Shown here: positions 11,035 through 35,495 of the stretch, one piece after another
Layout of the letters: every line of letters starts with the position of its first letter
Position numbering within the stretch: position 1 is the first letter of the stretch
Assembly (NCBI GenBank): GCA_045863395.1
Contig: BTVJ01000075.1
Location: 1-35,495 of the forward strand
DNA from: Myxococcales bacterium
GTDB lineage: Bacteria > Myxococcota_A > UBA9042 > JABWCM01 > BTVJ01
DNA length: 35,495 bases
Direction: 5' to 3'
Position numbers and translations under genes: made by a program
Notes under the pieces: model-generated
What the model was told of the DNA's origin: nothing
The model's input: only the letters and a program-made list of their open reading frames with translations
The model's database searches: none

Positions 11035-11053
11035 GTAAACCTCGGTGCGCGTC

Positions 11054-11458: not shown

Positions 11459-11466
11459 GGGGCGGG

Positions 11467-11495: not shown

Positions 11496-11524
11496 CAGGG
11501 GCGCGCCCCTGCCCGTGACAGGCG

Positions 11525-12376: not shown

Positions 12377-13784
12377 CCCGCAGCTCTCCGATGCGTCCGC
12401 GGCGCTTCTCCAGCCGGGCCGCCGCAGCGTCCAGGGCTGCCGCGACGCGCCCGGGCGCGGGCCCTCCCAGCACGTCGCGGCGGGCGACGCTCCGGGCGGG
12501 GTCCAGGGCGTCGACCAGGGAGGGGTCGTCGATGCCCGTGAGGGCGGCCAGCTCGGCTGAGCCCAGCGACTCGATGCTGCGCCCCTGGTCGGAGCACGCA
12601 GCCACCACGCTCCCGACGACGTGGTGCGCCTCACGGAAGGGCATGCCGCGCTCGACGAGGGCGTCCGCCAGGTCCGTCGCGGTGAGGTGCCCCGCCGCGA
12701 GGGCGGCGCGCATCCGGTCCTCTCGCAGCCGCGCCCGCTCCAGCATCCGCGCGGTCACCGTCAGGCAGGCGAGCACCGTGTCCGCCGCGTCGAAGAGCGG
12801 CTCCTTGTCCTCCTGCATGTCCTTGTTGTATGCGAGCGGCAGGCCCTTCATCACCGTGAGCAGCGCGACGAGGTCCCCGGTGACCCGCCCCGTCTTGCCC
12901 CGCACCAGCTCCGGGATGTCCGGGTTCTTCTTCTGGGGCATGATGCTCGACCCGGTGCAGAACGCGTCCGGCAGCTCGATGAACCCGAACTCCTGGCTCG
13001 TCCAGAGGACCAGCTCCTCGCTGAGCCGAGAGAGGTGCACCTGGCAGATGGCCGCCACCGCGCAGAACTCCAGGGCAAAGTCCCGGTCGCTGACGCCGTC
13101 CAGGCTGTTTCGGGTGATGCCGTCGAAGCGCAGGTCGCGGGCGACCATCTCCCGGTCGATGGGGAAGGGGGTCGCGGCCAGCGCCCCCGACCCGAGCGGC
13201 AGCACGTTGGTGCGCCCGAAGGAATCGAGCAGGCGATCACCGTCACGCTCCAGCATCTCCACGTAGGCCAGGAAGTGGTGCGCCGCGGTGACCGGCTGCG
13301 CCCGCTGGAGGTGGGTGTACCCCGGCATCAAGACGCCGTGGCCTGCCCGGGCAAGCGCTATCAGGGACCCTTGCAGCTCGGTGGCTGCCTCGGCGACGTC
13401 CAGAATGGCCCGCCGCAGCCACAGCCGCACGTCGAGGGCCACCTGGTCGTTGCGGCTGCGGGCGGTGTGCAGGCGGCCGGCCGGCTCCCCGATGCGCTCC
13501 GCCAGGGCGGCCTCCACGTTCATGTGGACATCCTCACGGTCGGTCCGCCACGTGAACCGCCCCTCCTCGATGTCATCGAGCACCGAACGCAGGCCACCGA
13601 CGATGGCGTCGCGGTCCGCCACGGTGATCACTCCGACGGCGGCCAGCATACGGGCATGGGCCACGCTTCCGAGGACGTCCTCCCGAGCGAGGCGCTGGTC
13701 GAAGGCTACCGACGCGTTCAGCTCCTCCACCAGGCGATCCGTCGCCTCGCGGAAGCGTCCGCCCCAAAGCTTCTTCTCTGTCAT
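12348..13784 (-). CDS. argH: Argininosuccinate lyase
   Basis: KLWGGRF, HTARSRNDQV, MPGYTHLQRAQP, signature GSSIMPQKKNPD and AYNKDMQEDKE. Confidence 0.97.
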   Translation of the reverse strand: MTEKKLWGGRFREATDRLVEELNASVAFDQRLAREDVLGSVAHARMLAAVGVITVADRDAIVGGLRSVLDDIEEGRFTWRTDREDVHMNVEAALAERIGEPAGRLHTARSRNDQVALDVRLWLRRAILDVAEAATELQGSLIALARAGHGVLMPGYTHLQRAQPVTAAHHFLAYVEMLERDGDRLLDSFGRTNVLPLGSGALAATPFPIDREMVARDLRFDGITRNSLDGVSDRDFALEFCAVAAICQVHLSRLSEELVLWTSQEFGFIELPDAFCTGSSIMPQKKNPDIPELVRGKTGRVTGDLVALLTVMKGLPLAYNKDMQEDKEPLFDAADTVLACLTVTARMLERARLREDRMRAALAAGHLTATDLADALVERGMPFREAHHVVGSVVAACSDQGRSIESLGSAELAALTGIDDPSLVDALDPARSVARRDVLGGPAPGRVAAALDAAAARLEKRRGRIGELRDATSLDHLL

Positions 13785-13801
13785 GGTGTCTCTTGCGCGC
13801 G

Positions 13802-15772: not shown

Positions 15773-15863
15773 GATCCAGGTGCCTCCTTCGGGACGCCGT
15801 GGGGACGCCGGGACCACGGGGGGTCGAACGGCCGCCCGATTCAATCGAATGCCCTCGCAGATG

Positions 15864-16277
15864 TCAAGGCGCTGGCGCGCTCTCCAGGAGCTCTGCCAGC
15901 ACCCCGTTGCAGCTTCTCGGGTGCATGAAGGCCACGGGCAGGCCCTCGGCGCCGATGGACGGCTCCGGCGACACCATCCGGACCCCCTTGGACTGGACGT
16001 CGGCGATCTTGGCGCGGATGTCGTCCACCTCGAAGCACACGTGGTGGATGCCCTCGCCCCGCTTGTCCAGGAACGTCGAGATCTCGCTGCGCTCATGCAG
16101 CGGCTCGAGCAGCTCGACCAGCGTCTCGCCCGCCCGCAGGAAGGCGACACGCAGGCCACGCTCGGGCAGCTCCTTCGTCGACTCGTGCTCGAGGCCGAGC
16201 GCGTCCCTCCAGAATGACAGCGCCGCGTCGATGTTGTGTACGGCGATGCCCAGGTGCGCGATCCCCTTTGGCTTCAT
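15864..16277 (-). CDS. mce: Methylmalonyl-CoA epimerase (VOC family)
   Basis: HLGIAV, VELLEP, FLDKRGEGIHHVCFEV and AFMHPRSCNGVL-x-EL. Confidence 0.9.
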   Translation of the reverse strand: MKPKGIAHLGIAVHNIDAALSFWRDALGLEHESTKELPERGLRVAFLRAGETLVELLEPLHERSEISTFLDKRGEGIHHVCFEVDDIRAKIADVQSKGVRMVSPEPSIGAEGLPVAFMHPRSCNGVLAELLESAPAP

Positions 16278-16296
16278 TTGGCATCCTCCAGATACG

Positions 16297-16330
16297 CCGA
16301 AGCCCCGGACCGCGAGGTCCGGGGCTCCGA
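16297..16330 (-). terminator. Strong hairpin after groEL (terminator or mRNA-stabilising stem)
   Basis: Perfect 11-bp stem AGCCCCGGACC-gcga-GGTCCGGGGCT at 16301-16326, extendable with G-U pairs. The U-tract is weak. Confidence 0.6.
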
Positions 16331-16355
16331 CTGGCTCGCCAGGTGCTGGCGACGG

Positions 16356-18080
<1,725 letters not shown>

Positions 18081-18178
18081 TCAGGTCTTCTTCAGGCACT
18101 CTCAGTCAATCCGGGGTCCCCGGGCCTCTATGACAGCCCCAGGGTTGACCTCTCGACATGGGCGTTTCGGGGATGCGC

Positions 18179-18469
18179 TCAGCCCTCGATGATGCCGAGG
18201 ATGTCGTCCTCGCGCATGATCAGGTGCTCGTCGCCATCGATCTTGATCTCGGTGCCGGCGTACTTGCCGAAGAGGATCTTGTCCCCCTCCTTCACCGTGA
18301 GCTTGCGGCGCGTCCCGTCCTCGAGGACCTTGCCCTGGCCGGCAGCGATCACGCGCCCCTCGATGGGCTTCTCCTTCGCCGTGTCGGGGATGATGATGCC
18401 GCCCTTGGAGACCTGCTCCGAGTCCAGGCGCTTGACGATGACGCGATCATGGAGCGGTGTGATCTTCAT
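18179..18469 (-). CDS. groS: Co-chaperonin GroES
   Basis: [14 protein letters not shown]...[13 protein letters not shown]...[11 protein letters not shown], 96 aa. Confidence 0.98.
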
Positions 18470-18530
18470 GCTCTGCCTCTCTGCGTGTCGACGATGAATC
18501 GAAAGATTTCGGGGCTTTTTGGACTTCATT

Positions 18531-18557
18531 CTGGCACTCGCCCCTAGGGAGTGCCAA
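18531..18557. promoter_or_regulatory. CIRCE element (HrcA operator)
   Basis: CTGGCACTC-N9-GAGTGCCAA against the consensus TTAGCACTC-N9-GAGTGCTAA, about 60 nt upstream of groES. Confidence 0.92.
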
Positions 18558-18663
18558 AGCGCACGGCGCAATATATTCGAGCAGCAGCGGTTTGCAACCC
18601 ACATGACGGCACATTTTCGGGGTGCCCGCTGGACTGGTGGCTCGGACCGCCAACGCCGGGGCG

Positions 18664-18691
18664 AATGTATGGGGGGGGGCAGGTTTGTCAA
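18664..18691 (-). promoter_or_regulatory. Putative groESL promoter
   Basis: Minus strand reads TTGACA-N16-TACATT. It also contains a sigma32-like CCCCAT. Confidence 0.55.
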
Positions 18692-18788
18692 CCCCCACAA
18701 GCGCCACTATACTGCGCAGCATTCACGGCGGCGGAGGGTGACGGCGCGTGCGGAGCGCCCCCGAGCCGGCCCAACCCCTGGGGTCCCC

Positions 18789-21700
18789 ATGGCGCGAGTC
18801 CGGTCCGTTCAGCGCGCGCTCCTGCTCGCGCTCCTGCTCTCGACGGTGGTAGCCGCGGCGCAGAGCTGCAAGGAGGAGATCGTCTACGACACGATCTACC
18901 TCGAGATTCGCAGCGGCGTGGTGGTCGATGAGCTGCATGTGAGGGTGAGATCGGCCAGCGACGCCGGACGCACCGTCATCGGGGCGACCGCAGCGCTGGG
19001 CACCCTCGTCAAGGTCCCCTCCGGTCGCTCGCTGGCCTCGGATCCGTTCGTCATCCGCGTGGAGCCGGGCAGTGCCGTCAGCGGGCTCGTCGATCTTCAG
19101 GTCAGCGGTCTCGCCGGTGGCGCGCTGGTCGCCGCGTGGGGCGGGCGCGTCGACCTCACCATCGAGGCGGCCATCCCCGTGAACCTCACGCCGCTGCCCG
19201 CCGGTTGTGACGCGGACGGGGACGGCGCCGTGGGCTGCGACAAGGGCTCCTGCTGCCCCGGCTCCCTCGCGGAGCTCGCCGACTGCGACGACACCAACGC
19301 CGAGGTCTCGCCGTTCGCGGCGGCGCTGCCCGAGTGCATCCCGTGCGCCGGCGCCCTGGATTGGCTCTGCACCGGCGCCGCGCCCCCCTGCGCCGACACG
19401 GACGGCGACGGCGTCGCCGACTGCGAGGACTGCGCCCCCAGCGACAAGACGGTAGGCCCCGGCCTCGTGGAGATCTGCGGCAACGGCAAGGACGACAACT
19501 GTGACGGCCAGCAGGATGAGGGCTGGACGTGGAACGACGCCGGCACGCCCCGGAAGGTGGGCGACGCGTGCGGAGTGGGCGCCTGCGCGGGCGGCGTCGT
19601 GAGCTGCGACAACGACCTCCGGGTGCCGGTGTGCACGACCGCGGCGAAGGGCACGGTCGAGGTGTGCGGCAACGCCATCGACGACGACTGCGACGGCGCC
19701 ACCGACGAGGGGTGCACGGTCGGCGACTGGGACGGCGACGGGTACGTGGAGGGCGACTGTCGCCCCTACGATTCGGCCTTCCACCCGGGCGCGTTCGAGC
19801 CATGCTGCGACAAGAGCCTGGGCGACAAGGCGCTGGCGATCTGCGACCGGGACTGCGACGGCGAGGTGGGCCTGTGCAGCCCCGACGACAAGGACGCGGA
19901 CGGCTTCGCGCCGCCGGCCGACTGCGACGACGGGGACGCGACCGTACACCCCGGGGCGCCCGAGAAGTGCGACGACGGGGTGGACCAGGACTGCGACGGT
20001 CGTGACACGGCCTGCGGCGATCCGGGTGTCGTCGACGGCGATGGCGATCAGTGGGTCGTCCCCGGCGACTGCGACGACACCAACCCGGCCATCCACCCCC
20101 TCGCGGCCGAGGTCTGCGACAACAAGGACAACGACTGCGACGGCATCGTCGACGAGGGCAACCCCGGCGGCGGGGACCCCTGCGAGCCGAGCCTGGAGTT
20201 CGGCGTCTGTGCCCCAGGTACCCTGGTCTGTGCCCACCTGGGCAGCTCGGGCGGCACCGTGGGCGCGAAGGTGACCTGCGTGGACTACGTGGCCGGCCAG
20301 GCCGAGCTCTGCAACGGGCTCGACGACGACTGCGACGGCCAGGCGGACGAGGGCTTCGACTGGGACGGCGCGCCCGTCGGCGCCGCGTGCGAGGGCACCG
20401 GCGCCTGTGGGCTCGGGACCGTGGAGTGTGCCATGGTCGAGGGCACCGCGGTCGCCCTGTGCTCCACCAACCCGGGCGGGTCGGCGTCGGAGGCGCAGCC
20501 CGAGGTGTGTGACCTGGCTGACAACGACTGCGACGGCGTGACGGACGAGGGGCTCACGGGAGGCCTCCTGGAGGGATGCCTGACGGCCGGCGTGTGCGCC
20601 GCCGGAGTCCCCGCGGCGTGCGTCGAGGGCCAGGTCGAGTGCGGCTACGGCGAGGTCCCCGGCTTCGAGGATCCCGAGGTGACCTGCGACGGCAAGGACA
20701 ACGACTGCAGCGGCGAGGCGGACGAGCCCTTCACCTACGGTGGCGCCAAGGTAGGCGCGCCCTGCGATGGCGTGGGCGAGTGCGGCGCGGGCGCAGTCGA
20801 GTGCGCCGCTGGCGGCGCGTCGGCCACCTGCTCCACGAACCCGGGGGCGAGCGCCTCGCAGGCGAAGCCGGAGGTCTGCAACGCCAAGGACGACGACTGC
20901 GACGGCGAGACGGACGAGGGCTTCGACTACGCTGGCGTTGCCCTCGGGGGGGCCTGCGACGGCGTGGGTGAGTGCGGCACCGGAACAGTGGAGTGCGCCC
21001 CGGGCGGCGGCAAGGCGACGTGCTCGACCAACCCGGATGGCAGCGGCTTCGTGCTGGTGCCCGAGATCTGCAATGGCAAGGACGACGACTGCGACGGCCA
21101 GACGGACGAGCCCTTCGACTACGGCGGCGTGGCGCTGGGAGCCCCCTGCGTCGGCGTGGGCGCGTGTGGGCCGGGCACGGTGGAGTGTGTCGCCGGCGGG
21201 CTCAAGGCGACGTGCTCGACCAACCCGGACGGCAGCGCCCCCGGGGCCACGGGCGAGGCGTGCAACGGCAAGGACGACGACTGCGACGGGCAGACGGACG
21301 AGGGCTACACGTGGAACGGCCTCGGCCTCGGCGCGACGTGTGACGGCGTCGGCGAGTGCGGTCTCGGCAAGGTGGAGTGTCGCGGGGACGGCGCAGCGGC
21401 GACCTGCTCGACCAACCCAGACGGGAGCGCCCCCGGTGACAAGCCGGAGACCTGCGACGGCAAGGACGAGGACTGCTCGGGTGCGGCGGACGACAACCTC
21501 CCGACGGGCGAGGCGGCCATCGCTGCCGCCAAGTGCAACACCCAGGGCGTCTGCGCGGACCCGGCCATCGCGCCGACGTGCGGCAGCGCCAAATGGGCCT
21601 GCCACTACGACAAGGCCGCTGGCTGGGAGGTGGCAGAGGTGTCCTGCGACGGGCTGGACAACGACTGCGATGGCCAGACGGACGAGGGCTTCCAGTGGAG

Positions 21701-23489
21701 CGGCGTCGGGCTCGGGAAGGCCTGCGACGGGACGGGCGAGTGCGGCGCAGGCACCGTCGAGTGCACGCCCGACAAGAAGACGGCCACCTGCTCGACCAAC
21801 GCCAACGGCACGCAGAAGCAGGACACCTCAGAGGTCTGCAACGGGAAGGACGACGACTGCGACGGGCAGACCGACGAGGGCCTCCCCACTGGGGTCGCGG
21901 CGGTCACGGCGGCCGGCTGCAAGACCGCGGGCGTCTGCGTCGCGAACCTGGTGCAGGCGGTGTGCACCACCGGCGCCTGGGTGTGTGGCTACGGCGCCAT
22001 CAGCGACTACGAGGCTGGCGCGGAGCTCTCCTGCGACGGCAAGGACAATGACTGCGATGGCTTCACCGATGAGGAGTTCACCTGGCTGGGGCTCTCCAAG
22101 GGGACGGCCTGCGACGGGACGGGTGAGTGCGGCCAGGGCGTGGTGGTGTGTGACGCCACCGGCAAGGCGGCCACGTGCTCGACCAACCCCAACGCGTCCG
22201 GCGGGTCCCAGGCAAAGGTGGAGGACTGCAACGGCAAGGACGACGACTGCGACGGCGTGACGGACAACAACCTGCCGACGGGTGGTGCGGCAATCGGCGC
22301 GGCGAAGTGCAACACGAAGGGCGTGTGCGCTTCACCGCAGATCGCTCCGACCTGCACCAACGGATCGTGGACCTGCCACTACGAGCTGGCGACCGGCTAC
22401 GAGGGCGCGACGGAGGCGTCCTGCGACGGCCAGGACAACGACTGTGATGGCGCGACGGACGAGGAGTTCACGTGGAGCGGCCTCGTGGTCGGGGCGGTCT
22501 GCGACGGCGTCGGGGAGTGCGGGGTGGGCGTCGTCCAGTGCAAGGGGGTGTCGTCGGCGACCTGCTCCACGAACCCGGACGGCACCAGCCCGGGGGGCGC
22601 CGAGGAGAGCTGCAACGGCAAGGACGACGACTGTGACGGCCAGACCGACGAGACGTGGACCCTCGGCGTCCCCTGCGACGGCCCTGACGCGGACTCGTGT
22701 GAGGAGGGCGTGACCATCTGCTCCGCGGACGGGACGACCACGGCCTGCAGCGACGCCACGGGCGACACCGTCGAGGTGTGCAACGGCCTCGACGACGACT
22801 GCGACGGGTCCACCGACGAGCACTGGCCGAACCTGAAGGACGTCTGTGACGGCGTGGACGACGACTTCTGCGACAACGGCCTGATCACCTGCACGGCAGA
22901 TGGCAGCGGCGTCACGTGCGTCGAGGACGGCCCGGGCGAGGTGGAGGTGTGCGACGGCCAGGACAACGACTGCGACGGCCAGACGGACGAGGGCTACGCC
23001 GTTGGTGAGCCGTGCTCCGTCCCTGACGAGCTGGGCGACGCCGACTCCTGCTCCGAGTCGGGCACGTGGGCCTGTGACCCCGCGCTGCAGACGGCTGTGT
23101 GCTCCAACGTCCAGCTCAGCGCCAAGGTGGAGCTGTGCAACGGCGTAGACGACACCTGCGACGGGTCCGTGGACGAGGCGTTCCCGACCAAGGGGCAGAA
23201 GTGCGATGGCGCGGACGGTGACTCGTGCGCAACGGGCACCCTCCAATGCTCCGTAGACGGGACGACGCTCGTGTGCGGGGGTGACGTCGCGTGCGCGCCT
23301 GGCACGAGCTGCTTCGCGGGGGAGGGACAGGCCCTCGACGTGTGCTTGTGTGGCACCGCGCCATGCAACGTCAACCAGGGGGACGCCTGTGCACCGGCAA
23401 CCAACGACTGCACGTGCGGCGGGCTGGATGACGGGTGTGACGGGGTGGTCCTCGTCTGCAAGGAGGGCCAGTGCAAGGTGCCTGAGTAG
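18789..23489 (+). CDS. Giant Cys/Asp-rich repeat surface (lipo)protein with MopE-related putative metal-binding motifs, ~1566 aa
   Basis: Signal peptide ending AAQS-C, then an N-terminal beta-rich domain. About 21 copies of E-x-C-(N/D)G-x-D(D/N)DCDG-x-x-DE, plus D-x-DGDG motifs. Confidence 0.9.
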   Translation: MARVRSVQRALLLALLLSTVVAAAQSCKEEIVYDTIYLEIRSGVVVDELHVRVRSASDAGRTVIGATAALGTLVKVPSGRSLASDPFVIRVEPGSAVSGLVDLQVSGLAGGALVAAWGGRVDLTIEAAIPVNLTPLPAGCDADGDGAVGCDKGSCCPGSLAELADCDDTNAEVSPFAAALPECIPCAGALDWLCTGAAPPCADTDGDGVADCEDCAPSDKTVGPGLVEICGNGKDDNCDGQQDEGWTWNDAGTPRKVGDACGVGACAGGVVSCDNDLRVPVCTTAAKGTVEVCGNAIDDDCDGATDEGCTVGDWDGDGYVEGDCRPYDSAFHPGAFEPCCDKSLGDKALAICDRDCDGEVGLCSPDDKDADGFAPPADCDDGDATVHPGAPEKCDDGVDQDCDGRDTACGDPGVVDGDGDQWVVPGDCDDTNPAIHPLAAEVCDNKDNDCDGIVDEGNPGGGDPCEPSLEFGVCAPGTLVCAHLGSSGGTVGAKVTCVDYVAGQAELCNGLDDDCDGQADEGFDWDGAPVGAACEGTGACGLGTVECAMVEGTAVALCSTNPGGSASEAQPEVCDLADNDCDGVTDEGLTGGLLEGCLTAGVCAAGVPAACVEGQVECGYGEVPGFEDPEVTCDGKDNDCSGEADEPFTYGGAKVGAPCDGVGECGAGAVECAAGGASATCSTNPGASASQAKPEVCNAKDDDCDGETDEGFDYAGVALGGACDGVGECGTGTVECAPGGGKATCSTNPDGSGFVLVPEICNGKDDDCDGQTDEPFDYGGVALGAPCVGVGACGPGTVECVAGGLKATCSTNPDGSAPGATGEACNGKDDDCDGQTDEGYTWNGLGLGATCDGVGECGLGKVECRGDGAAATCSTNPDGSAPGDKPETCDGKDEDCSGAADDNLPTGEAAIAAAKCNTQGVCADPAIAPTCGSAKWACHYDKAAGWEVAEVSCDGLDNDCDGQTDEGFQWSGVGLGKACDGTGECGAGTVECTPDKKTATCSTNANGTQKQDTSEVCNGKDDDCDGQTDEGLPTGVAAVTAAGCKTAGVCVANLVQAVCTTGAWVCGYGAISDYEAGAELSCDGKDNDCDGFTDEEFTWLGLSKGTACDGTGECGQGVVVCDATGKAATCSTNPNASGGSQAKVEDCNGKDDDCDGVTDNNLPTGGAAIGAAKCNTKGVCASPQIAPTCTNGSWTCHYELATGYEGATEASCDGQDNDCDGATDEEFTWSGLVVGAVCDGVGECGVGVVQCKGVSSATCSTNPDGTSPGGAEESCNGKDDDCDGQTDETWTLGVPCDGPDADSCEEGVTICSADGTTTACSDATGDTVEVCNGLDDDCDGSTDEHWPNLKDVCDGVDDDFCDNGLITCTADGSGVTCVEDGPGEVEVCDGQDNDCDGQTDEGYAVGEPCSVPDELGDADSCSESGTWACDPALQTAVCSNVQLSAKVELCNGVDDTCDGSVDEAFPTKGQKCDGADGDSCATGTLQCSVDGTTLVCGGDVACAPGTSCFAGEGQALDVCLCGTAPCNVNQGDACAPATNDCTCGGLDDGCDGVVLVCKEGQCKVPE

Positions 23490-26653: not shown

Positions 26654-28479
26654 CCGGCCTCGTCTCCCGCTTGGTCGTCCGCTTGGCTGCGGCCCGCAAA
26701 CCCCAGGTACCGCTCCGCCATCTCCGCCACACCGTCGGGGCTGACGGGCTTCGCGTAGAACCCGTCCGCCGCCGTCACCCGCAGGATCTCGTGGACTCGA
26801 ACGCCGGAGGGCGGATCGCTGACGATCACGATGCGCACGCCGGGGCGTGAGCTGCGCACGGACTGGAGGAACGTGGAGATGGGGCGGGCATCGCTCACGC
26901 GGAGCTCCGTGATGAGCAGCGAGATCTGCTGATCCTGAAGGATCCTGCCTGCCTCGGCCGCGGTCCTGGCGCTGTGGGTGATGCCCCCCAAGCGCTCCAG
27001 CCCGGCCCGCAGCGCGCTCGCTGCCTCCGGGTTCGGATCCAGCACCAGGACGCCATGGCCGTGCCCGTCCTCCTCCTGGGCCTGGCTCAGCGGCAGGCGT
27101 ACCACGAAGCGCGCGCCGCCGGTGGGGGCGTCCGCTACACCGATGCGGCCACGGTGGCGGCGGACGATTTCGGTGCAGATGGCGAGCCCGAGCCCCGTGC
27201 CCACGCCCGCCGGCTTGGTGGTGTAGAAGGAGCCAAAGATCGCCGCCTTCATCTTGTCGGGGATGCCCGGCCCGTTGTCGCTGACCGACAGCTCTACCTC
27301 GTCGCGCACGAGGCGGGTCGTGACCGTCACGCGGGGGGTCCGACCCTCCGGCGGGCTCTCCGCCAGGGCGTCACAGGCGTTGCCGACCAGGTTGATCAGC
27401 ACCTGCTGGAGGGCGCTCGGGTCCCCGTCGATGAGCGGCAGGTCCTTGGCGAGCTCCGTCGCGGGCTCGATGCCCGCGTCCGTGAAGCGGCGCTTGAGGA
27501 ACAGGAGGCTCGTCTCCACGACCTCGTTGAGCATCATGCTCTGGAGGTTGGACGGGGCGCGGCGGGAGAACGTGCGCAGGTTGTTGATGATCTTCGCCAT
27601 CCGCTCCACGGCATTGCGCACGAAGCTGAGCGCCTCCAGGGTGTCCGCGTGGCGCTCGGGCTCCTCCTCGAGGGTTGAGATCGCCTCTTCCGTGAAGCCC
27701 ATCGCCACGGTCAGCGGGTTGTTCAGCTCGTGGGCGATGCAGGAGGACAGCTCACCGATGCTCGCGAGCTTCTCGTTCTGGATGAGCTGCTCCTGGAGCT
27801 TGTCGATGTGGCGCTGCCTTCGCTCTACGTGCGCCTTCAGGCCGTCCGCGCGCTCTCGGATGCTGGTCTCCACCTGCTTCTGGCTGCGCAGGGAGTGCCC
27901 TGCGTCGCGGAGGGCGGCGATGCGGAGCTGGTAGGCGCGGAACTGATCGCGGCCGAGCAGCACGAAGAGGGCTGCGGCCGCGAAGGGCAGCGCCACGGAT
28001 GCCGGCGTCTCGTGGGTCCAGTCGGCGCCGAAGGCCACCCCCCCCAGGTGCGCGAGCAGCAGGATCGTCGAGAGCGCGATGTTGTCTCTCTGGGGCTTCG
28101 GCAGCCCAAGGCAGAACGCTCCGAGCAGGAGCACGGTCACCGCCGACCCGGCGAGCGCCACGCGCCCGGCGATCAGGCCCAGGGAGGCCACGGCGACCGC
28201 GCTGGTGAGGACGTAGAGGTAGAGGAGCGCGCGAGGGTGTCGCCAGTCGACGGCAGCGCGGCCGGCGTAGTGGAGCAGGGCAAAGGCAGCCGAGAACCCC
28301 GCCCCGACCAGGAGCAGCTCCGGGTGGTCGGACGGGGCGGCGGCCCACGTCGCGAGCGCGATGACCATCACCGAGACGCCGCACAGGATCGAGAGGACGG
28401 CGGAGGTCCCGGCGACGGAGACCCAGAGGTCGTGCTCCTCCGAGCGGGTCAGGTGAGCTCGGTGCTGGGTGCTCTGCAT
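26650..28479 (-). CDS. Membrane hybrid sensor histidine kinase with an atypical C-terminal receiver domain
   Basis: About 6 hydrophobic helices and a coiled coil. H-box AHELNNPL, N-box QVLINLVGNA, G1 DNGPGI, F/G2 FYTTKPAGVGTGLGL and a receiver-like tail. Confidence 0.9.
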   Translation of the reverse strand: MQSTQHRAHLTRSEEHDLWVSVAGTSAVLSILCGVSVMVIALATWAAAPSDHPELLLVGAGFSAAFALLHYAGRAAVDWRHPRALLYLYVLTSAVAVASLGLIAGRVALAGSAVTVLLLGAFCLGLPKPQRDNIALSTILLLAHLGGVAFGADWTHETPASVALPFAAAALFVLLGRDQFRAYQLRIAALRDAGHSLRSQKQVETSIRERADGLKAHVERRQRHIDKLQEQLIQNEKLASIGELSSCIAHELNNPLTVAMGFTEEAISTLEEEPERHADTLEALSFVRNAVERMAKIINNLRTFSRRAPSNLQSMMLNEVVETSLLFLKRRFTDAGIEPATELAKDLPLIDGDPSALQQVLINLVGNACDALAESPPEGRTPRVTVTTRLVRDEVELSVSDNGPGIPDKMKAAIFGSFYTTKPAGVGTGLGLAICTEIVRRHRGRIGVADAPTGGARFVVRLPLSQAQEEDGHGHGVLVLDPNPEAASALRAGLERLGGITHSARTAAEAGRILQDQQISLLITELRVSDARPISTFLQSVRSSRPGVRIVIVSDPPSGVRVHEILRVTAADGFYAKPVSPDGVAEMAERYLGFAGRSQADDQAGDEAG

Positions 28480-28696
28480 CGGTGTCCTTGGGGGGGCGCT
28501 CGACCAACCATGCCTACTATGCGATGGCCCTGGCCCTGCGGGCAAGGGTGGTGTTGGACCAGTGGACGCAAGCCGGGTTTCACCCGGACCAGGTCTTGGA
28601 GCGGCCGGTGCACGCTTGGACGTGGGAGCCCCGGAGGCGCGCTACGGCTGTGATCGAGGGCTCACCGGAGGCCAGACGTGAGGGGTCGGGGCTCGA

Positions 28697-28725
28697 TTGA
28701 CAGCCTGGGGTTGGTCACCTAGTAT
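28697..28725 (+). promoter_or_regulatory. Putative sigma70 promoter of the second TIGR04551-like gene (possibly of the operon running through hutH)
   Basis: TTGACA-N17-TAGTAT, 42 nt before the ATG at 28768. Confidence 0.65.
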
Positions 28726-28767
28726 CCCCCGGCGCTTCGTCCTGCAGACGGCCGCAGAAGGACCTCC

Positions 28768-30591
28768 ATGTGCGCTCGCCGGTGGCTACAAATAGGTGCG
28801 ACAGGGTGCTTGGCCCTGGCCCTGGCGGCGCCAGCGCATGCGCAGGTCGCGAGCGAAGCCGATGGCGAGGCCCAGGTCCAGGCGAGCCCGGCACCCAGGT
28901 CCGCGGGCCCGTCGGCGGAGGGGCACTCAGCGACCGCCGCGGTTCGTCCCTTCGTCGATTTCGGCCTCCACGGGAGCTTCCGCTTCCGTGCGGACATGTT
29001 TGGAAATGCCGATCTGGGGCTTCCAGTGGTCGGCACCGCCGTCGGCAGCGCGCTCGCGTGGGGCAGCGGGTTCCTGCCGCCGCTCGCCGAGCGGAACCTG
29101 CCGGGTGAGGACACCTCGGACCTCGTGGCCGGAGCCAACATCAGGCTGCGCCTGGAGCCTTGGGTCAGCGTCGGGGAGTCGGTCACGGTCCACGCGCAGA
29201 TCGACGTCTTCGACAACCTGGTGCTGGGGAGCACCCCCGACTACGCCCCGGGCAGGGCGGACGCCCCGCTGGTCTTCTTCTCCGAGGGGCAGGCGCCGCC
29301 CGTGGGGGGCGTCAACAGCCTCTCCGACGCGCTCCGCGTGAAGCGGATCTGGACGGAGATCAACCTGTTCCACTTGCTGAACTTCGAGGTCGGGCGCATG
29401 GCGCACCATTGGGGCATGGGGATGCTCCACCATGGCGGCGACTGTGACGACTGCGACTACGGCGACTCCGTGGACCGGGCGGCGGTGCGCATCGACCTGC
29501 CCATCGGGTTCTTCGTGCGCTTCGCCTGGGACTTCCCGGGGGAGGGCGCCCTGTTCAACGATCCGCGCGACTTCTACGGGCAGCCCTACGACGCGTCGCA
29601 GGTCGATGACGTGGATCAGTGGGTCCTGGAGCTCTTCGACCGCCCGGTGACGCTGGAGCAGCGACAGCAGCGGCTGAGGGACCTGCACGAGCGCCGTGTT
29701 CCGGTGCTGGACTGGGGCTTCTACAACGCCTTCAGGAAGGAGCGGTACTCGAGCCTGCTCCTGGACCTTCCGTCGGAGTGCAAGAACCAGAGTGGTCCGG
29801 TGCTGACCGACAGCGGCCTCGGGGGCGTCGCTTCCGTCACGTCCACGCCCTTCGACTGCGTCCAGATCACGGGGCGAGACGCCTTCTTCTGGATCCCGGA
29901 CCTGTGGTTCCGGGTGGAGTGGCGCCCCAGCTTCACCCAGCGGTTCCTGTTCGAGGTGGAGCTGGCCGGAGTGCTGCTCAGCGACGCGGGGCAGGTGCAG
30001 GGCGACCCGACCGTCGACAGCAGCCGCGTCTTCTGGTCGGGGGCTGGCGTTGCGCGGGCCGAGTACCAGGACCAGGCGTTGACCGGCGGGCTCGAGCTCG
30101 GGACGGCCACCGGCGATGACGTCGGCTTCTTCGGCGTGAAGGATCGATCCACCATCGTGGTGTCGGAGAGCGGGCTGCGTGACAAGGCGAACGCCGCCGT
30201 GCGTGGCAACGAGAACGTCACGAGCTTCATGTTCAACCGCGACTATCACGTGGACCTGCTCCTGTTCCGCGAGGTGATCGGGGCGGTGACCAACACGGTG
30301 TACGCGAAGCCCTGGGTGCGCTACGACATCGTGGACGCGGGATCCTGGAACCTCGGCGTGCGCCTGGACCTGCTCTATGCCGCCGCAATGTTCGCCGACG
30401 GTACCCCTGGCAGGGACTCGCACCTGGGCGTGGAGGGTGACCTCAAGCTGCTCCTCAACGTGGGCGACACGCTGACCGGGGTCCTGGAGACCGGGCTCCT
30501 GCTGCCCCTGAGGGGCCTGGACGACGCAGTTACGGGGACCGAGGCCAGCCCCGCCTGGACGCTCCAGGGGCGCCTTCACGTCCGGTTCTGA
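28768..30591 (+). CDS. TIGR04551-like outer-membrane beta-barrel protein (copy 2)
   Basis: Collinear with 13802-15772: HGSFRFRADMF, ANIRLR, DVFDNLVLGSTPDY, GRMAHHWGMG, VDLLLFREVIGAVTNTVYAKP. Ends TLQGRLHVRF. Confidence 0.8.
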   Translation: MCARRWLQIGATGCLALALAAPAHAQVASEADGEAQVQASPAPRSAGPSAEGHSATAAVRPFVDFGLHGSFRFRADMFGNADLGLPVVGTAVGSALAWGSGFLPPLAERNLPGEDTSDLVAGANIRLRLEPWVSVGESVTVHAQIDVFDNLVLGSTPDYAPGRADAPLVFFSEGQAPPVGGVNSLSDALRVKRIWTEINLFHLLNFEVGRMAHHWGMGMLHHGGDCDDCDYGDSVDRAAVRIDLPIGFFVRFAWDFPGEGALFNDPRDFYGQPYDASQVDDVDQWVLELFDRPVTLEQRQQRLRDLHERRVPVLDWGFYNAFRKERYSSLLLDLPSECKNQSGPVLTDSGLGGVASVTSTPFDCVQITGRDAFFWIPDLWFRVEWRPSFTQRFLFEVELAGVLLSDAGQVQGDPTVDSSRVFWSGAGVARAEYQDQALTGGLELGTATGDDVGFFGVKDRSTIVVSESGLRDKANAAVRGNENVTSFMFNRDYHVDLLLFREVIGAVTNTVYAKPWVRYDIVDAGSWNLGVRLDLLYAAAMFADGTPGRDSHLGVEGDLKLLLNVGDTLTGVLETGLLLPLRGLDDAVTGTEASPAWTLQGRLHVRF

Positions 30592-30676
30592 CGCTGGCTC
30601 CCCGGCTGGCGCCGGCGAGGTCCACCACGCGCAGTGAGGGCTCGGGCTTCTTCGACCCGCGGACGACCCCCCGGAG

Positions 30677-32137
30677 GTGACGATGGACCAGCCGACGCGC
30701 CCGCGCGGCACCAGGGACTGGCGGGGACCCGATCTGGAGGCCCACCTGCTCGTCGAGCAGACCTGTGGGCATGTCTTCGAGCGCTTCGGGTGCGAGCGGG
30801 TGCGCCCTCCGAGCTTCGAGGACTTCGCGCTGCTCGAGAGCCGCTACGGCGCCGCCATCCGGGAGCGGCTGTTCACCTTCCACGCGGACAGGGAGTACGC
30901 GCTGCGGCCCGACCTGACGGGGCCGGTCGCTCGCATGGTTGCGTCGGGGGCCCTGGACGGCGCGCCGCTGCCCTACCGACTGTCGTACGTCGGCGCGTGC
31001 TGGCGATACGAGAGGTCCCAGGACCTCCGGTGGCGCGAGTTCCGCCAGGCCGGCGTGGAGTTCGTCGGGGCGCCCGAGGGCGCGGCCGACGACGAGCTGC
31101 TCGACTGCGCGCTGGCGGTGCTGGAGGCGCTCGGGGTGACGGATGTGCGGGTGCGCCTGGGTCACGCGGGGCTCCTGGCCGGGTGGCTCGGAGCTCGGGA
31201 GGACACGGCGCCCCACGTGGCCAGGGTGCTGGCCGACCTGGACGCCCTGGACAGGGTTCGGGTGCGCGCCGCCGACGCGGATCCGCAGTGGCTGGCAGCC
31301 ACGCACGCTGCGCTCGCCGCGCGGCAGCGGGCGGCCCTGCGGTTCGGGCCGGAGGCGGTGCCGCGCGCCCTGCGCATGGACGCCGAGTCCGTCGGCACGG
31401 TGGGCGGTGCTGCGAAGGTGCTGGACGTGGCCCGCGCGACCACCCGCGCGCTCTGGGTGCTCGAGCTGGGGTTGCCCGAGGCGCTGGCGGACCGCCTGCT
31501 CGCTGTCCTCGCTGCGACGGCGCCGGACATGGAGGCGGTGCTCTCCGAGGCCCTGGAGGTGCCTTGCGTGCGGGTCGCCAACGCAGAGCTGGCGAGGGCC
31601 TGGGGGCGCATGGCTCCCTCGTGGCGCGCGAAGGCCGAGCTCGCTCCGGGGTCGGTGAGGGGGCTGGCGTACTACACGGGCCTCACCTTCGAGTTGGACG
31701 CCCCCGCGTTCGGCGGCCAGAAGCAGCTCTGCGGCGGCGGTCGCTTCGACCGGATGATCGGGGACCTGGGAGGGGTAGCGCACCCCGCCGCGGGCTTCGC
31801 CTTCGGCGTCGAGCGCCTGGCGGCGGCCATGGTGCGGGAGCGAGCGCTCCCAGCGCGACCGAGAGCGGTGTGGGTCGCGGCGGCGGATGACCGCTCGCGG
31901 GATGGGGCGGCCGACGAGGCGGCGCGGCTTCGGCGCGCCGGAGTCCCGGTGGTGACGGACCTGCTCGGCCGCACGTTGGCGGAGCAGATCGGCCAGGCGT
32001 CCTCCATGGGCGCCAGGGCCGTGGTGATCGTCGGGCCCGGCGAGGGGCGCGCAATCCGCTGGCTCGACGAACGGCGCCAGGAGGCGGTGGGGGCCGACGA
32101 GCTGGCCGTGAGGCTCGGCGCAGGAGGCGACGCATGA
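30677..32137 (+). CDS. Divergent HisS/HisZ-family (class II histidyl-tRNA synthetase-like) protein
   Basis: PRGTRD, ALRPDLT, motif 2 WRYER...RWREFRQAGVE, His loops RGLAYYTG and GGGRFD, motif 3 AGFAFGVERL, and a C-terminal anticodon-binding-like domain. The start may be the ATG at 30683. Confidence 0.85.
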   Translation: MTMDQPTRPRGTRDWRGPDLEAHLLVEQTCGHVFERFGCERVRPPSFEDFALLESRYGAAIRERLFTFHADREYALRPDLTGPVARMVASGALDGAPLPYRLSYVGACWRYERSQDLRWREFRQAGVEFVGAPEGAADDELLDCALAVLEALGVTDVRVRLGHAGLLAGWLGAREDTAPHVARVLADLDALDRVRVRAADADPQWLAATHAALAARQRAALRFGPEAVPRALRMDAESVGTVGGAAKVLDVARATTRALWVLELGLPEALADRLLAVLAATAPDMEAVLSEALEVPCVRVANAELARAWGRMAPSWRAKAELAPGSVRGLAYYTGLTFELDAPAFGGQKQLCGGGRFDRMIGDLGGVAHPAAGFAFGVERLAAAMVRERALPARPRAVWVAAADDRSRDGAADEAARLRRAGVPVVTDLLGRTLAEQIGQASSMGARAVVIVGPGEGRAIRWLDERRQEAVGADELAVRLGAGGDA

Positions 32138-34179
32138 CCGGAGTGCGCGAGGTGGTGCTCGATGGCCGCACCTTGACCATCGAACAGGTGGTCGACGTCG
32201 CGCGGCACCGGTGCCCCGTGCGTCTGTCCGACGAAGCGGCCCTCCGCATCCAGCGCGGGCGGGCGGTGGTCGACGTGCTCGTGGAGCGGGGCGTCAAGGT
32301 GTACGGCCTGACCACGGGCTTCGGGTCCAAGAGGGACGTGGTCATCGACGGGGGCGATGTCCGCCGGCTCCAGATGAACCTCATCGTCTCGCACGCGTGC
32401 GCCGTGGGTCCCCCCCTGCCCGAGGACCAGGCGCGGGCGACCATGTTGCTTCGGGCCAACACCCTGGCGCGCGGCGTCAGCGGCGTCAGGGTGGACGTCG
32501 TCGAGCGCCTCATCGCGCTCCTCAACCGCGGTGTCTACCCGTGGATCCCCTGCAAAGGGTCGCTCGGGGCATCCGGTGACCTGGCCCCGCTGTCCCACCT
32601 GGCCCTGGTCGTCGCCGGGCACCCCGCTGGGCGAGTGTACCGAGGCGACGAGCGGCGGCCGAACCGGCGTGGGGAGCTGACGGTCGACGGGTCGACCGAC
32701 GACGACTTCGTGGCCTCGACGAGTGAGCTCCTGCGGGCGCGCTTCGGGCTCGATCTCATCGCCCTGGAGGCGAAGGAGGGCCTCGCGCTCAACAACGGCA
32801 CGCAGATGATGGCTGCCATCGGTGTGCTGGGGCTCTACGACGCCGAGCAGCTCGTGCGGACCGCGGAGGTCGTGTGTGCGGCGTCCATCGAGGCGATCAA
32901 GGGCATGACGGGGGCGCTGGATCCGCGCCTCCACGATGCGCGCCCCTTCCCCGGACAGGTGAAGAGCGCCGCAAACCTGCGCCGGCTGCTGGAGGGGAGC
33001 CGGATCCTGACCCTGCCCCTGAACATGGCGCGGGTCGGCTCGGCGCGGCGCAGCGTGGAGGACGCCATGGCGGCGCTCGAGGCGGAACACTCCGTGCGGG
33101 CGGAGGAGGTCACGGAGGGGCTCCGCAGCGTGCTGTCTCGCATCGACGTGGTGCGCGCGGACCCAGACGCGGCCCTCGCAGCACAGCTCACTGCAATGCC
33201 CGCGGCCCGCCGCGATCAGCTCGCTGAGGCGCAGGCACAGCACGCGGCATTCCGGGCGGCGCTGGCGCCGGTGCTCGCCGAGCTTCAGGGGGTCTACCAG
33301 GCACTGCTCACGCCGGCGATCAGCGAAGAGGCGCTCCCCGCCCGCGATCACGTCATGGAGGCCATGGCTGCGCTGGAGCGGGCTGTGCCGAAGCAGCAAC
33401 GCGTGCAGGACAACTACTCGTTCCGCTGCATGCCCCAGGTGGCCGGAGCGGTCCGGGAGGTGCTGGAGCACGTGCGGCGGGGCTTGGAGATCGAGATCAA
33501 CGCTGCCACGGACAACCCGCTGATCTTTCCTCCAGATGCGCCGGGGGTCGCAGACGACGACCTGGAGGGCTACCGGGCGTCTCTCACCGTGCCGGCATGC
33601 GTCGACGCGGTCGTCTCGGGCGGCAACTTCCACGGTGAGCCGGTCGGGTTCCTGATGGACTACCTGGCCATGGGCATCGCCGAGCTGGGGAGCATCGCGG
33701 AGCGCCGGACCGCGCAGCTCACCGACGGGCACCTCAACAACGGGCTGCCGAGCCTGCTCGTGTGGCGCTCAGGGCTCAACAGCGGGCTGATGATCCCCCA
33801 GTACACGGCGGCCTCGCTGGTCAGCGAGAGCAAGATCCTCACGCACCCCGCGACCACGGACAGCATCCCGAGCTGCGAGAACACGGAGGACCACGTCAGC
33901 ATGGGGACCATTGCGGCGCGCAAGGCGCTGCAGGTCTTGGAGAACGTGGAGTCGGTGATCGGGATCGAGCTCCTGACTGCGTACCAGGCCCTGAGCTTCC
34001 GGCGCCCGCTGCTGCCCGGGGCGGCGACGCAGGCGGCCCTCGCCGCAGTAGAGGACGCCGGCGGGTCTGTGATCACTGAGGACCGGCCCATGTACCCCGA
34101 GATGGAGCGTGCGACGCAGCTCGTGCGCAGCGGTGCCCTCCTTCAGGCCGTGGAGGCTGCTACCGGGCGCCTCGCCTGA
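32134..34179 (+). CDS. hutH: MIO-dependent aromatic amino-acid ammonia-lyase with histidine ammonia-lyase signature, enlarged by insertions (681 aa)
   Basis: VYGLTTGFG, LIVSHAC (the HAL-type SH), MIO triad in GSLGASGDLAPL (ASG at 32569-32577), KEGLALNNGT, RVQDNYSFRC-x-PQV, DNP, SGGNFHG and EDHVSMG. Confidence 0.85.
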   Translation: MTGVREVVLDGRTLTIEQVVDVARHRCPVRLSDEAALRIQRGRAVVDVLVERGVKVYGLTTGFGSKRDVVIDGGDVRRLQMNLIVSHACAVGPPLPEDQARATMLLRANTLARGVSGVRVDVVERLIALLNRGVYPWIPCKGSLGASGDLAPLSHLALVVAGHPAGRVYRGDERRPNRRGELTVDGSTDDDFVASTSELLRARFGLDLIALEAKEGLALNNGTQMMAAIGVLGLYDAEQLVRTAEVVCAASIEAIKGMTGALDPRLHDARPFPGQVKSAANLRRLLEGSRILTLPLNMARVGSARRSVEDAMAALEAEHSVRAEEVTEGLRSVLSRIDVVRADPDAALAAQLTAMPAARRDQLAEAQAQHAAFRAALAPVLAELQGVYQALLTPAISEEALPARDHVMEAMAALERAVPKQQRVQDNYSFRCMPQVAGAVREVLEHVRRGLEIEINAATDNPLIFPPDAPGVADDDLEGYRASLTVPACVDAVVSGGNFHGEPVGFLMDYLAMGIAELGSIAERRTAQLTDGHLNNGLPSLLVWRSGLNSGLMIPQYTAASLVSESKILTHPATTDSIPSCENTEDHVSMGTIAARKALQVLENVESVIGIELLTAYQALSFRRPLLPGAATQAALAAVEDAGGSVITEDRPMYPEMERATQLVRSGALLQAVEAATGRLA

Positions 34180-34294
34180 TCTGGCGGAGTGCTGCCCGAA
34201 GGGCTCGATTTGTTCAGGCGCGCGCGCTACTGTACGGCCGCTCCGGTTGGCTGCCGCCCGGTGCGTCGCGTGGGCGCAGGCTTGAGGTGAAGCG

Positions 34295-35495
34295 GTGCAG
34301 GACGTGCAAGAGCGGGAGTCGGCGCGGAGCGACTCCGACCAGAAGCTGGAGTGGGTGTTGCGATGCGCCACCACGGACCTGGGCCTCGCCATGCGGGAGG
34401 CGCTGAGGGGGCTGGGGCCCCGGGTCTTGAGGGACCGGGCGCTCGCCCTGCGGAGTGGCGCCGAGGTCCCGGGACGCGAGGAGGCGGCGCAGGTGCTGGC
34501 TGCCATCGCCGTCGAGAACCTGGGGGCGCCCCTCGAGGATCCGGAGGCGACGGTCGAGCGGTGCCTGAACCCGGTGTGGTTGCGTGCGGCCGGCGTGTGC
34601 ATCCAGTCGGTCTACGTCAGGCCAGGGGCGCCGGTCACGGCGGCGCAGCGGGCCATGACGGCCGACCTGCCCGTCGAGGACCTGGGCGGTGGAGGCCCCT
34701 TCCTTGTCTGGGACTCCTTCGCGACCGTGTCTCGCGCACTGAACCTGGGGTGGGTGTATACGGACAGCCCCCTTCGCACCAGGACCGTCACCGAGTCAGA
34801 GATTGGGCTCTTGCGGAGCGTCCCCGCCGCGGATCTGGAGGAGGGCGTGCCGACGCTCGACGCGCGGGAGGCGCTGCGCGTGCGCATCGACGCCGCCATG
34901 GCGATCCTGTCGGGGGACGAGGTCGAGATGTCCGATGGCGCGCCTCCGTCGAAGGGGGCGGGTGTGGCGCCGCGGGTCAATCTGCTCGGCTCCACGGTGG
35001 GGACGCCGTGGTCCCATGCCGTCGAAGACCAGAGCGAGGAGCCCGCGGGGCTTGGCGGGCGCAGGGCCGTGCTCTGGGGGGGCGTCGCCGCCGTCGTCGT
35101 GCTCGTCGTCGCCGCCGTGTGGCTTGGATGGAAGGCCCTCACCGCGACGAGGGGCAAGCCAGGCGGTGATGCCGTCGTTGCCTCGGGAGATGCGACGCCT
35201 GGGGCCAGACCGGGCGGTGCGGAGGGCGCGCCGAAGCACGAGCCGGCAGGGAGCCCGGGTGGGGGCGCCGGTGAGCCCGAGAGCGTCGTGGCGGCTCCCG
35301 GAGAGTCTCCCTCGGCGGCCGGCCGTCCGGCGGCGGTCCCTGGAGGAGCCGAAGAGGGGACGGAGGCCGCACGGGCTGCGGAGGCGGCGGCCGCGGGGGC
35401 GGCGCGGGTCGCCGAGGCGGAGGCGGAGGCCGCGAAGGCTGCGGAGGCGGAGGCCGCGAAGGCTGCGGAGGCGGAGGCCGCGAAGGCTGCGGAGG
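34295..35495 (+). CDS. Hypothetical single-pass membrane protein with a TolA-like Ala/Glu/Lys repeat stalk; runs off the right edge
   Basis: Not in the ORF track because there is no stop. GTG follows GAGGTG and the frame is open to the edge. It encodes a ~250-aa cytoplasmic part, TM helix VLWGGVAAVVVLVVAAVWLGW, a Gly/Pro linker and (AEAEAAKA)n. Confidence 0.7.
   Translation, partial: MQDVQERESARSDSDQKLEWVLRCATTDLGLAMREALRGLGPRVLRDRALALRSGAEVPGREEAAQVLAAIAVENLGAPLEDPEATVERCLNPVWLRAAGVCIQSVYVRPGAPVTAAQRAMTADLPVEDLGGGGPFLVWDSFATVSRALNLGWVYTDSPLRTRTVTESEIGLLRSVPAADLEEGVPTLDAREALRVRIDAAMAILSGDEVEMSDGAPPSKGAGVAPRVNLLGSTVGTPWSHAVEDQSEEPAGLGGRRAVLWGGVAAVVVLVVAAVWLGWKALTATRGKPGGDAVVASGDATPGARPGGAEGAPKHEPAGSPGGGAGEPESVVAAPGESPSAAGRPAAVPGGAEEGTEAARAAEAAAAGAARVAEAEAEAAKAAEAEAAKAAEAEAAKAAE
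35417..35495 (+). repeat. 24-nt perfect tandem repeat (at least 3.3 copies, truncated by the window edge)
   Basis: gcggaggcggaggccgcgaaggct at 35417, 35441 and 35465, with a partial copy at 35489. Encodes AEAEAAKA. Confidence 0.95.

Follow-up and report, generated by a model that had tools for sequence, protein, structure and literature searches.

A histidyl-tRNA synthetase-like paralog preceding an enlarged histidine ammonia-lyase: a candidate histidine sensor of histidine breakdown in a Myxococcales bacterium

The window analysed here, a stretch of 35,495 nucleotides from a Myxococcales bacterium, contains a gene for a paralog with the fold of histidyl-tRNA synthetase (HisRS) and, directly downstream, a gene for an enlarged histidine ammonia-lyase (HAL). 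The features of the locus are as follows:

28697..28725, + strand: sigma-70-like promoter match, the sole one in 28400-34500 (consensus match only)
28768..30591, + strand: TIGR04551 gene, upstream of the paralog
30673..30677, + strand: Shine-Dalgarno-like GGAGG ahead of ATG 30683
30683..32137, + strand: HisRS-fold paralog, 484 aa (P0003), of a distinct HAL-linked subfamily
31004..31060, + strand: class II motif 2 (R108-E126), with histidine-pocket residues Q122 and E126 retained
31166..31627, + strand: enlarged helical insertion domain of the paralog, about residues 162-315
31658..31675, + strand: histidine-binding loop RGLAYY (E. coli R259-Y264)
31892..32107, + strand: weak anticodon-binding domain, residues 404-475
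32123..32137, + strand: GGAGG and ATGA stop/start overlap (overlap at 32134-32137)
32134..34179, + strand: enlarged HAL, 681 aa (P0002)
32389..32394, + strand: Ser86-His87, the histidine-type specificity pair as described in PMC11432326
32569..32577, + strand: Ala-Ser-Gly 146-148, the MIO tripeptide
33007..33393, + strand: helical bundle of about 130 residues in place of a short loop, directly before catalytic Q425/Y428/R431

As the original prediction had it, the stop codon of the HisRS-like gene overlaps the start codon of the lyase gene, with both reading frames on the + strand; together with the GGAGG this arrangement suggests that the two are translationally coupled. ATG 30683 is the more likely start of the paralog, because the GGAGG overlaps the alternative GTG 30677 and the matching methionine is the first residue of five orthologs. 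The paralog-lyase junction is bridged by contigs of two other runs (records 11 and 26) and is therefore not a misassembly. The TIGR04551 gene also lies ahead of the lyase in two relatives with the same gene order, and it falls outside the wider paralog-lyase module. The sigma-70-like match (one in the scanned interval, 0.1 expected) may drive all three genes, and no Rfam element was found in the window. Contigs of an RNA run cover the paralog and lyase genes and their flanks equally; their source may be DNA.

By its residues and profile score the lyase is a HAL, enlarged as originally described: it passes the hutH model TIGR01225 (565.4 bits, cut-off 539.15), stays below the aminomutase cut-offs (TIGR03832, 371 of 501; TIGR04475, 321 of 800; TIGR04473, 166 of 1250) and is the only HAL, and only MIO lyase, of its genome. 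The Ser86-His87 pair is present in 103 of 103 aligned lyase relatives. The fold is common with HutH of P. putida (1eb4/1b8f) and T. cruzi (6v6h), with a TM-score by target of 0.92, and all eight active-site positions named for G. kaustophilus HutH are found (Y57, H87, N221, Q425, Y428, R431, F499 and E585). It differs from these enzymes in the helical insert before Q425 and in two smaller inserts; in addition, the enlarged lyases mostly reside outside hut clusters, loci L308 and L388 being cases within them. The S289-Q425 span measures 136-161 aa in 15 paired lyases versus 11-17 aa in 83 standard HALs taken from a generic-motif scan, and the motif of the enlarged lyases, QD[DN]YSxRC, occurs at none of 155 other HAL loci. 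The insert matches no named family and shows no convincing similarity to the insert of the paralog (best E 0.015).

The closest folds to the paralog are HisRS, and its scores are below cut-off for both hisS (TIGR00442, 247 bits, cut-off 286.75) and hisZ (TIGR00443, 183 bits, cut-off 271.65). Its anticodon-binding domain is a marginal Pfam match (22.6 bits, cut-off 21); such a domain is detected in eight of 24 subfamily members and undetected in the other 16, and four of 20 HAL-linked paralogs terminate at most 11 residues after motif 3. Histidine-pocket positions D/E77, T79, Q122, E126, Y331 and R354 are retained throughout (24/24). Eroded positions are E115 (9/24), P117 (8/24), G120 (3/24) and R123 (12/24), a pattern that matches 17 HisZ-type controls and contrasts with 47 HisS proteins; in the window paralog the motif-2 loop reads ERSQDLR instead of ERPQKGR. 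Judged by these residues, the paralogs keep the histidine pocket and erode ATP- and tRNA-related features as HisZ does, and tRNA charging has probably been lost. The window protein itself has all catalytic and histidine-binding residues, which are partly lost in other members: it retains the nine HisRS-conserved charged positions of PMC8558854 (with Asp for Glu83) as well as R121, R123, F125 and R311. Across the subfamily, R259 (22/24 versus 12/17 in HisZ) and R121 (20/24 versus 4/17) are better kept than in HisZ, so that the paralog may still adenylate. No DNA-binding domain was found in the paralog or its subfamily members.

A search of the genome for a separate canonical hisS, which the original prediction had proposed, found one at 394.7 bits, over the cut-off, together with one tRNA-His. 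HisG, hutU and hutI, whose genes had been reported missing from the window, all lie on other contigs; HisG is of the long form, and hutU and hutI score over cut-off. In place of the sole hisS, or the sole hisZ serving a short HisG, that had been named as counter-evidence, the genome thus holds a separate hisS and a long-form HisG, and the paralog is hence not the housekeeping HisRS, nor a HisZ that the genome needs. In the 14 other genomes with the pair, a separate hisS is over cut-off in 13, and HisG is long-form in five (every one found), with none found in nine.

HisS/HisZ and HAL trees, as had been proposed, were built for both partners, those of the paralog from the catalytic core. The enlarged HALs form a clade of their own (support 0.998, 46 rows). 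The 20 HAL-linked paralog rows make up one side of a single branch (support 97/99), and paralog and lyase distances correlate over 18 pairs (Mantel rho 0.67, p 0.0002). The protein at L388 lies outside the HAL-linked branch, though it is counted among the 18 pairs and among the 20 proteins compared for their length beyond motif 3. On the 97/99 branch, the HAL-linked paralogs are a subfamily of their own. In a faster tree their monophyly was only weakly supported and they fell near HisZ (91 SH-aLRT), and in an earlier tree rows of three HisZ clusters were nested among them. Co-divergence of paralog and lyase would also arise from joint transfer.

Several candidates for the subfamily were rejected: the L343 protein was reclassified as a canonical hisS, a match in genome G452 is a different long-insert HisZ type, and L388, P0224, P0009, P0010 and their kin fall outside the HAL-linked branch. 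Alignment A5 included P0010 along with P0234, P0239 and P0250. Searching another 400 genomes from the phylum of L388 yielded no additional match to its protein.

Conservation of the pair, a further expectation, is borne out: among 54 loci that carry the enlarged-HAL motif, the paralog is directly upstream of the lyase at 15 (13, plus two across contig breaks), and at seven of the 54 a canonical hisS, of several subtypes, adjoins the lyase instead. On the same strand, a HisRS-fold gene adjoins the lyase at 22 of 55 enlarged-motif loci versus one of 155 other HAL loci, kin among them not being independent, and chance adjacency is unlikely on these counts. In 30 of the 55 enlarged-motif genomes, which are MAGs with some loci cut by contig ends, no subfamily member was detected and no hisS was seen beside the lyase; the lyase insert therefore does not require the paralog. 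Among 401 genomes of the phylum, 16 have an enlarged HAL and 11 the paralog (eight of these 11 matches belonged to the search alignment); all 11 carry the enlarged HAL, and no paralog occurs without it. In the remaining three, G122, G152 and G410, from two genera, the lyase is on a different contig from the paralog, hence the co-occurrence is not a matter of linkage alone. The pair has a scattered distribution, both over the lyase tree and among phyla. None of the 80 loci from a metagenome scan has the pair. Around the pair loci there is no recurring acceptor or carrier family. No bacterial HisRS-HAL fusion was found among the best 120 lyase matches (615-752 aa) or in a second search confined to proteins of 1051-3000 aa; one candidate, P0360, is actually HisS-AspS.

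The reading we favour, at roughly even odds, is that HAL is gated by the paralog, acting as a HisZ-like subunit that senses histidine. The lyase would be the cell's working histidase, converting histidine to urocanate and feeding HutU and HutI. The paralog would be a non-charging partner whose retained pocket binds histidine and which docks on the lyase, most likely at the inserted helical bundle beside the catalytic Gln-Tyr-Arg segment, and switches it such that histidine is destroyed only in surplus, leaving the pool available to the real HisRS. Of the original proposal that a histidine- or tRNA-sensing subunit gates catabolism, the histidine version fits residue pattern, distribution and trees; the tRNA version is weakened because most subfamily members have no detectable anticodon domain. 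HisZ itself is described as a non-catalytic, histidine-sensing regulator (PMC9734150, PMC9437257), and the parallel with HisZ and short HisG is close: a HisRS paralog stands beside an intact hisS, with the pocket kept and the motif-2 loop and tRNA features eroded. Unlike HisZ, however, the paralog has no short HisG to serve and is coupled to a catabolic enzyme; in the tree with 97/99 support its branch is separate from ordinary and long-insert HisZ alike, it keeps R259 and R121 more often, and some members keep the anticodon domain. The HisRS-like domain of GCN2 likewise uses the fold as a sensor controlling another enzyme (PMC4335047), but there the signal is uncharged tRNA and the domain is fused to a kinase, whereas the tRNA-binding parts are often lost here.

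A functional link without a complex is rather unlikely yet deserves weight. Here the paralog would respond to histidine or uncharged tRNA by influencing how the lyase is expressed or by acting on some other target; alternatively, the two genes would simply be a co-transferred module. In favour of this reading, everything that speaks for the pair comes from genomes, the distribution of the pair is scattered, and at seven loci hisS takes the adjacent position. The reading sits poorly with the lack of a detectable DNA-binding domain or Rfam element, with the frequent loss of the anticodon domain, and with a paralog never seen without the enlarged lyase in 401 genomes, unlinked cases included. An ordinary HisZ serving HisG and beside hutH by accident is very improbable. 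Its HisZ-like residue pattern would fit, and at L388 a look-alike long-insert protein precedes a short HisG inside a hut operon, while genome G520 has the same protein type with a 261-aa HisG and no HAL; but both proteins are outside the HAL-linked branch, which places G520 in a non-HAL-linked long-insert group and removes it as a counter-example. Moreover, the pair genomes have a long HisG or none found, and in G462 a short HisG has a HisZ-like gene of its own next to it, in addition to the paralog.

That the paralog activates a substrate of its own is doubtful in either form. If it were an additional functional histidyl-tRNA synthetase expressed together with the lyase, the HisRS-like fold, the catalytic residues and the anticodon domain of the window protein would be accounted for, but the score below the hisS cut-off, the altered motif-2 loop, the truncated or anticodon-less relatives, and a genome with one tRNA-His and an intact hisS make this quite improbable. 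Scarcely more probable is the broader version of the second original model, in which histidine, beta-histidine or urocanate is adenylated and passed to a non-tRNA acceptor, possibly the lyase; the beta-histidine ligase proper is unlikely. Equivalents of R113, R259 and R311 are mostly retained (22, 22 and 20 of 24). EpmA (PoxA/GenX) with EpmB also joins a class II synthetase paralog to an amino-acid-converting enzyme. PoxA/GenX offers a precedent (PMC9437257). The parent family differs, however, and the partner here is an ammonia-lyase by its invariant Ser-His pair and sub-aminomutase scores, the sole HAL of a hutU/hutI genome, with relatives inside hut clusters. With no acceptor or carrier family recurring nearby, and F125, R121 or R311 lost in some members, the model is not supported.

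More tentatively, the histidine-sensor reading might be one case of a wider arrangement in which HisRS-fold proteins dock on the enlarged HAL insert, either a dedicated pseudo-synthetase or, where hisS adjoins, the housekeeping HisRS, so that histidine breakdown would be coupled directly to translation's histidine status. If so, HisZ-HisG would have its mirror image in catabolism. Control of the first step of catabolism by a synthetase-like subunit would itself employ the HisRS fold in a new way and add a new level of regulation: the hut regulators HutC and HutP act on gene expression, and HisZ is the sole HisRS entry in the table of synthetase paralogs of a 2022 review (PMC9437257). The docking arrangement could also correspond in bacteria to the plant HisRS-HAL fusion, and may even be its source. 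The originally noted N-terminal HAL-like domain of plant cytosolic HisRS (At3g02760) is confirmed in print (PMC7564348), where its role is stated as unknown. There too a HisRS fold is tied to a HAL fold, but the plant protein is the cytosolic synthetase and its HAL-like part is described as lacking Ala-Ser-Gly, whereas the bacterial pair has two separate genes, an intact lyase and a synthetase that is the eroded partner. The pair also offers a two-protein bacterial system in which to study what purpose the dead HAL domain serves in plant cytosolic HisRS.

The gene pair belongs to an 8.77-Mb genome (97% complete, 71% GC) in which the window makes up one entire contig (C75). Two TIGR04551 genes in the window, taken with related loci, suggest a member of Myxococcota. 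Two reading frames are concerned:

30683 (ATG) to 32137, + strand: HisRS-fold ORF, 484 aa (the paralog)
32134-34179, + strand: MIO lyase ORF, 681 aa (the lyase)

The overlap of the HisRS-like stop with the lyase start, on which the original prediction of a coupled pair was built, is present as ATGA at 32134-32137; GGAGG precedes each of the two starts, and the paralog-lyase junction is bridged by contigs of two other runs. The genome carries a separate canonical hisS on contig C81 (394.7 bits, above cut-off; 31% identity to the paralog), and its HisG, encoded by the first gene of the his cluster on C2, is of the long form (293 aa as listed). The paralog is therefore neither the only hisS nor the sole hisZ of a short hisG, but an additional HisRS-fold gene for which the genome offers no short HisG. 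The hut genes sought elsewhere are represented by hutU (C12) and hutI (C63), both above their cut-offs; the lyase of the window, being the genome's one PF00221 gene, is the sole HutH candidate. There is a single tRNA-His gene, and a tRNA-Sec gene is also present.

The lyase scores above the hutH cut-off and below those of three aminomutase models, which speaks against the suggestion that it is an aminomutase making beta-histidine for the paralog to ligate. In the structure model (pLDDT 93.7) its fold matches HAL of P. putida and T. cruzi, and model and alignment place a roughly six-helix bundle (residues ~292-420) where other enzymes have a loop of 11-17 aa, directly before Q425/Y428/R431. The replaced loop presumably lines the HAL active-site entrance. 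Among the matches listed, the best 120 homologs are 615-752 aa long. Y57, S86, H87, S147, G148, N221, Q425, Y428, R431 and E585 do not vary among 103 aligned relatives, of which 101 have A146 and 102 have F499; these residues correspond to those that PMC11432326 reports to matter in G. kaustophilus HAL. Enlarged HALs form one clade (support 0.998, 46 rows), 17 of 18 carrying the motif QD[DN]YSxRC, which occurs at 0 of 155 other HAL loci. Their tree neighbours are three Ignavibacteria enzymes whose span measures 42 aa; of the Ignavibacteria HALs with a shorter insertion at this position (L315, L338, L348), two of three have hisS directly upstream. At L302:3068-5316, L306:856-3170 and L334:3202-5291 enlarged HAL genes are broken into two or three frames, through sequencing error or decay.

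The paralog-lyase feature is real and conserved. When DNA of one genome per species was scanned for QD[DN]YSxRC, 54 loci matched, and each of them encodes the lyase. The paralog lies directly upstream on the same strand at 13 of these (L299, L302, L304, L312, L321, L323, L324, L328, L329, L330, L331, L340, L349), at many of which stop and start overlap or abut, and two further pairs are divided by contig ends (G016, joined by ~120 identical bases; G448, by frame match). Two close orthologs of the paralog match the two closest lyases listed in the length of the longest contig and may lie next to them. Canonical hisS of several subtypes takes the paralog's place beside the enlarged lyase at seven loci (L305, L315, L322, L333, L335, L338, L343) and also flanks four of the paralog-lyase loci (L302, L304, L312, L321). 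Counting L046, a HisRS-fold gene adjoins HAL at 22 of 55 enlarged-motif loci compared with 1 of 155 other HAL loci; at six more of the 155, hisS lies at a distance of 1.5-4.3 kb. Around enlarged-HAL loci, no further notable gene family recurs from lineage to lineage. The exception among the 155, L189:3480-6905 (Rhodanobacter), has hisS 30 bp upstream of a HAL that falls outside the enlarged clade and has its own insert of ~55 aa in the corresponding loop. The HisRS-like ORF at L293:8600-10195, highly degenerate and of a different type, stands head to head with an enlarged HAL and may have been recruited independently.

Across 401 genomes of the host phylum the paralog occurs in 11, from eight families. 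The enlarged lyase is found in 14 at E<=1e-110; two more genomes missed this threshold (G247 and G152, by coordinate match to L299 and L306), so that 16 is a lower bound. All 11 paralog genomes fall within the 16, although the Fisher p of 5e-18 is overstated: related genomes do not count as independent, and the query alignment already included 8 of the 11 hits. Free of this circularity are the three new hits from two genera (G122, G152, G410), which all belong to the 8 enlarged-lyase genomes left among 393; in each, paralog and lyase lie on different contigs. The reverse relationship is incomplete: 55 enlarged-motif genomes comprise 18 with a subfamily member, 7 with an adjacent hisS only and 30 with neither. 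Separate hisS genes occur in 13 of 14 pair genomes.

In a tree of 231 core columns, insertion and anticodon domains excluded (LG+C20+F+G4; 53 of 134 rows after near-copies were dropped), the 20 HAL-linked rows are divided by one branch (97/99) from HisS, ordinary HisZ, long-insert HisZ and the L388/P0224 group; faster trees are less clear on this point. The paralog did not arise by recent duplication of the hisS in this genome. Paralog and lyase distances are correlated (rho 0.67, 18 pairs), the paralogs diverging faster (mean identity 31% versus 50%).

Residues were compared, in E. coli numbering via a 1htt alignment, between 24 subfamily members, 47 HisS and 17 HisZ-type controls (3 named, 2 above cut-off, 12 assigned from tree position and length). 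We take T85, Y263 and Y264 to be pocket residues, and E115, R121, F125 and R311 to have ATP/tRNA roles. The histidine pocket (E83(D), T85, Q127, E131, Y264, R287) is retained in 24/24 members and 17/17 controls. Compared with HisS, E115 remains in 9/24 (47/47 HisS have E or D here), G120 in 3/24 (44/47) and R123 in 12/24 (47/47); an anticodon domain is detectable in 8/24, and four proteins end just past motif 3. A clean loss of catalysis is nevertheless argued against by R259 and R121, better retained in the family than in HisZ, and by the window paralog, which keeps the nine conserved charged positions described in PMC8558854 (Asp for Glu83).

By anatomy the paralog is HisZ-like in its working, yet it is not classed as HisZ because it falls below the hisZ cut-off and has no short HisG. 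In the open, non-subscription literature covered, and as far as the available text goes, the HisRS fold is tied to the HAL fold only in PMC7564348, which links the two in plants; 'lyase' is absent from the main text of two synthetase-paralog surveys (PMC5388404, PMC9437257), whose supplements could list such proteins. Within that literature, there is no description of a separate HisRS-paralog subfamily linked to an enlarged-HAL clade of its own.

HisZ is a subunit without catalytic function, which activates its partner and holds the allosteric histidine site (PMC9734150). Across the paralog family, the core that forms the dimer, the histidine pocket and the enlarged helical insertion persist, and tRNA-handling parts are the dispensable ones; the lyase, for its part, has acquired a surface domain next to the catalytic segment. 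The simplest reading of the pair would be HisZ logic moved to catabolism, close to the sensor gating originally proposed: the paralog may bind the lyase and would then allow it to run when histidine is plentiful. If so, gating would matter most in cells unable to make histidine; HisG was found in 5 of 14 pair genomes, all long form, and went undetected in the other nine, which, these being MAGs, does not imply gene loss.

A related arrangement at L388:1082-13562 (G481) runs in the order long-insert HisRS-like gene, 264-aa HisG, EF-1alpha-like GTPase (390 bits, under cut-off), hutU, hutI, hutG-like gene and enlarged hutH, facing egtD and hisS; it brings the entry step of histidine synthesis, histidine breakdown and a gene resembling a translation factor into one operon. 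G520 (L397:8736-10238, L431:1429-2214) has an L388-type HisRS-like protein and a 261-aa HisG of the same kind, with no HAL found in that genome. Both HisRS-like proteins lie outside the HAL-linked branch and are probably true HisZ of an unusual short HisG; an L388-type operon, joining HisZ-like gene, HisG and enlarged lyase, is a plausible setting for a partner switch. A group of ~500-aa HisRS-like proteins that have both the insert and the anticodon domain (P0009 and part of P0218-P0235; one member above the hisS cut-off) may be an unrecognised HisZ type for atypical short HisG. P0360 is a 1029-aa HisS-AspS, by fusion or read-through.

Downstream of the pair, an ORF at 34295-35495 (+) without family match leaves the contig end within EAEAAKAA-type repeats. 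About 20 kb away, the minus strand (9913-18700) carries groES, groEL, a TIGR04551 gene, argH and a KamA-family radical SAM gene, the last above the TIGR00238 cut-off and under those for lysine aminomutase and EpmB. The window holds two TIGR04551-family genes above cut-off, at 13802-16159 (-) and 28768-30591 (+), and a large protein with 10 PF11617 repeats (MopE-type metal-binding) at 18519-23489 (+).
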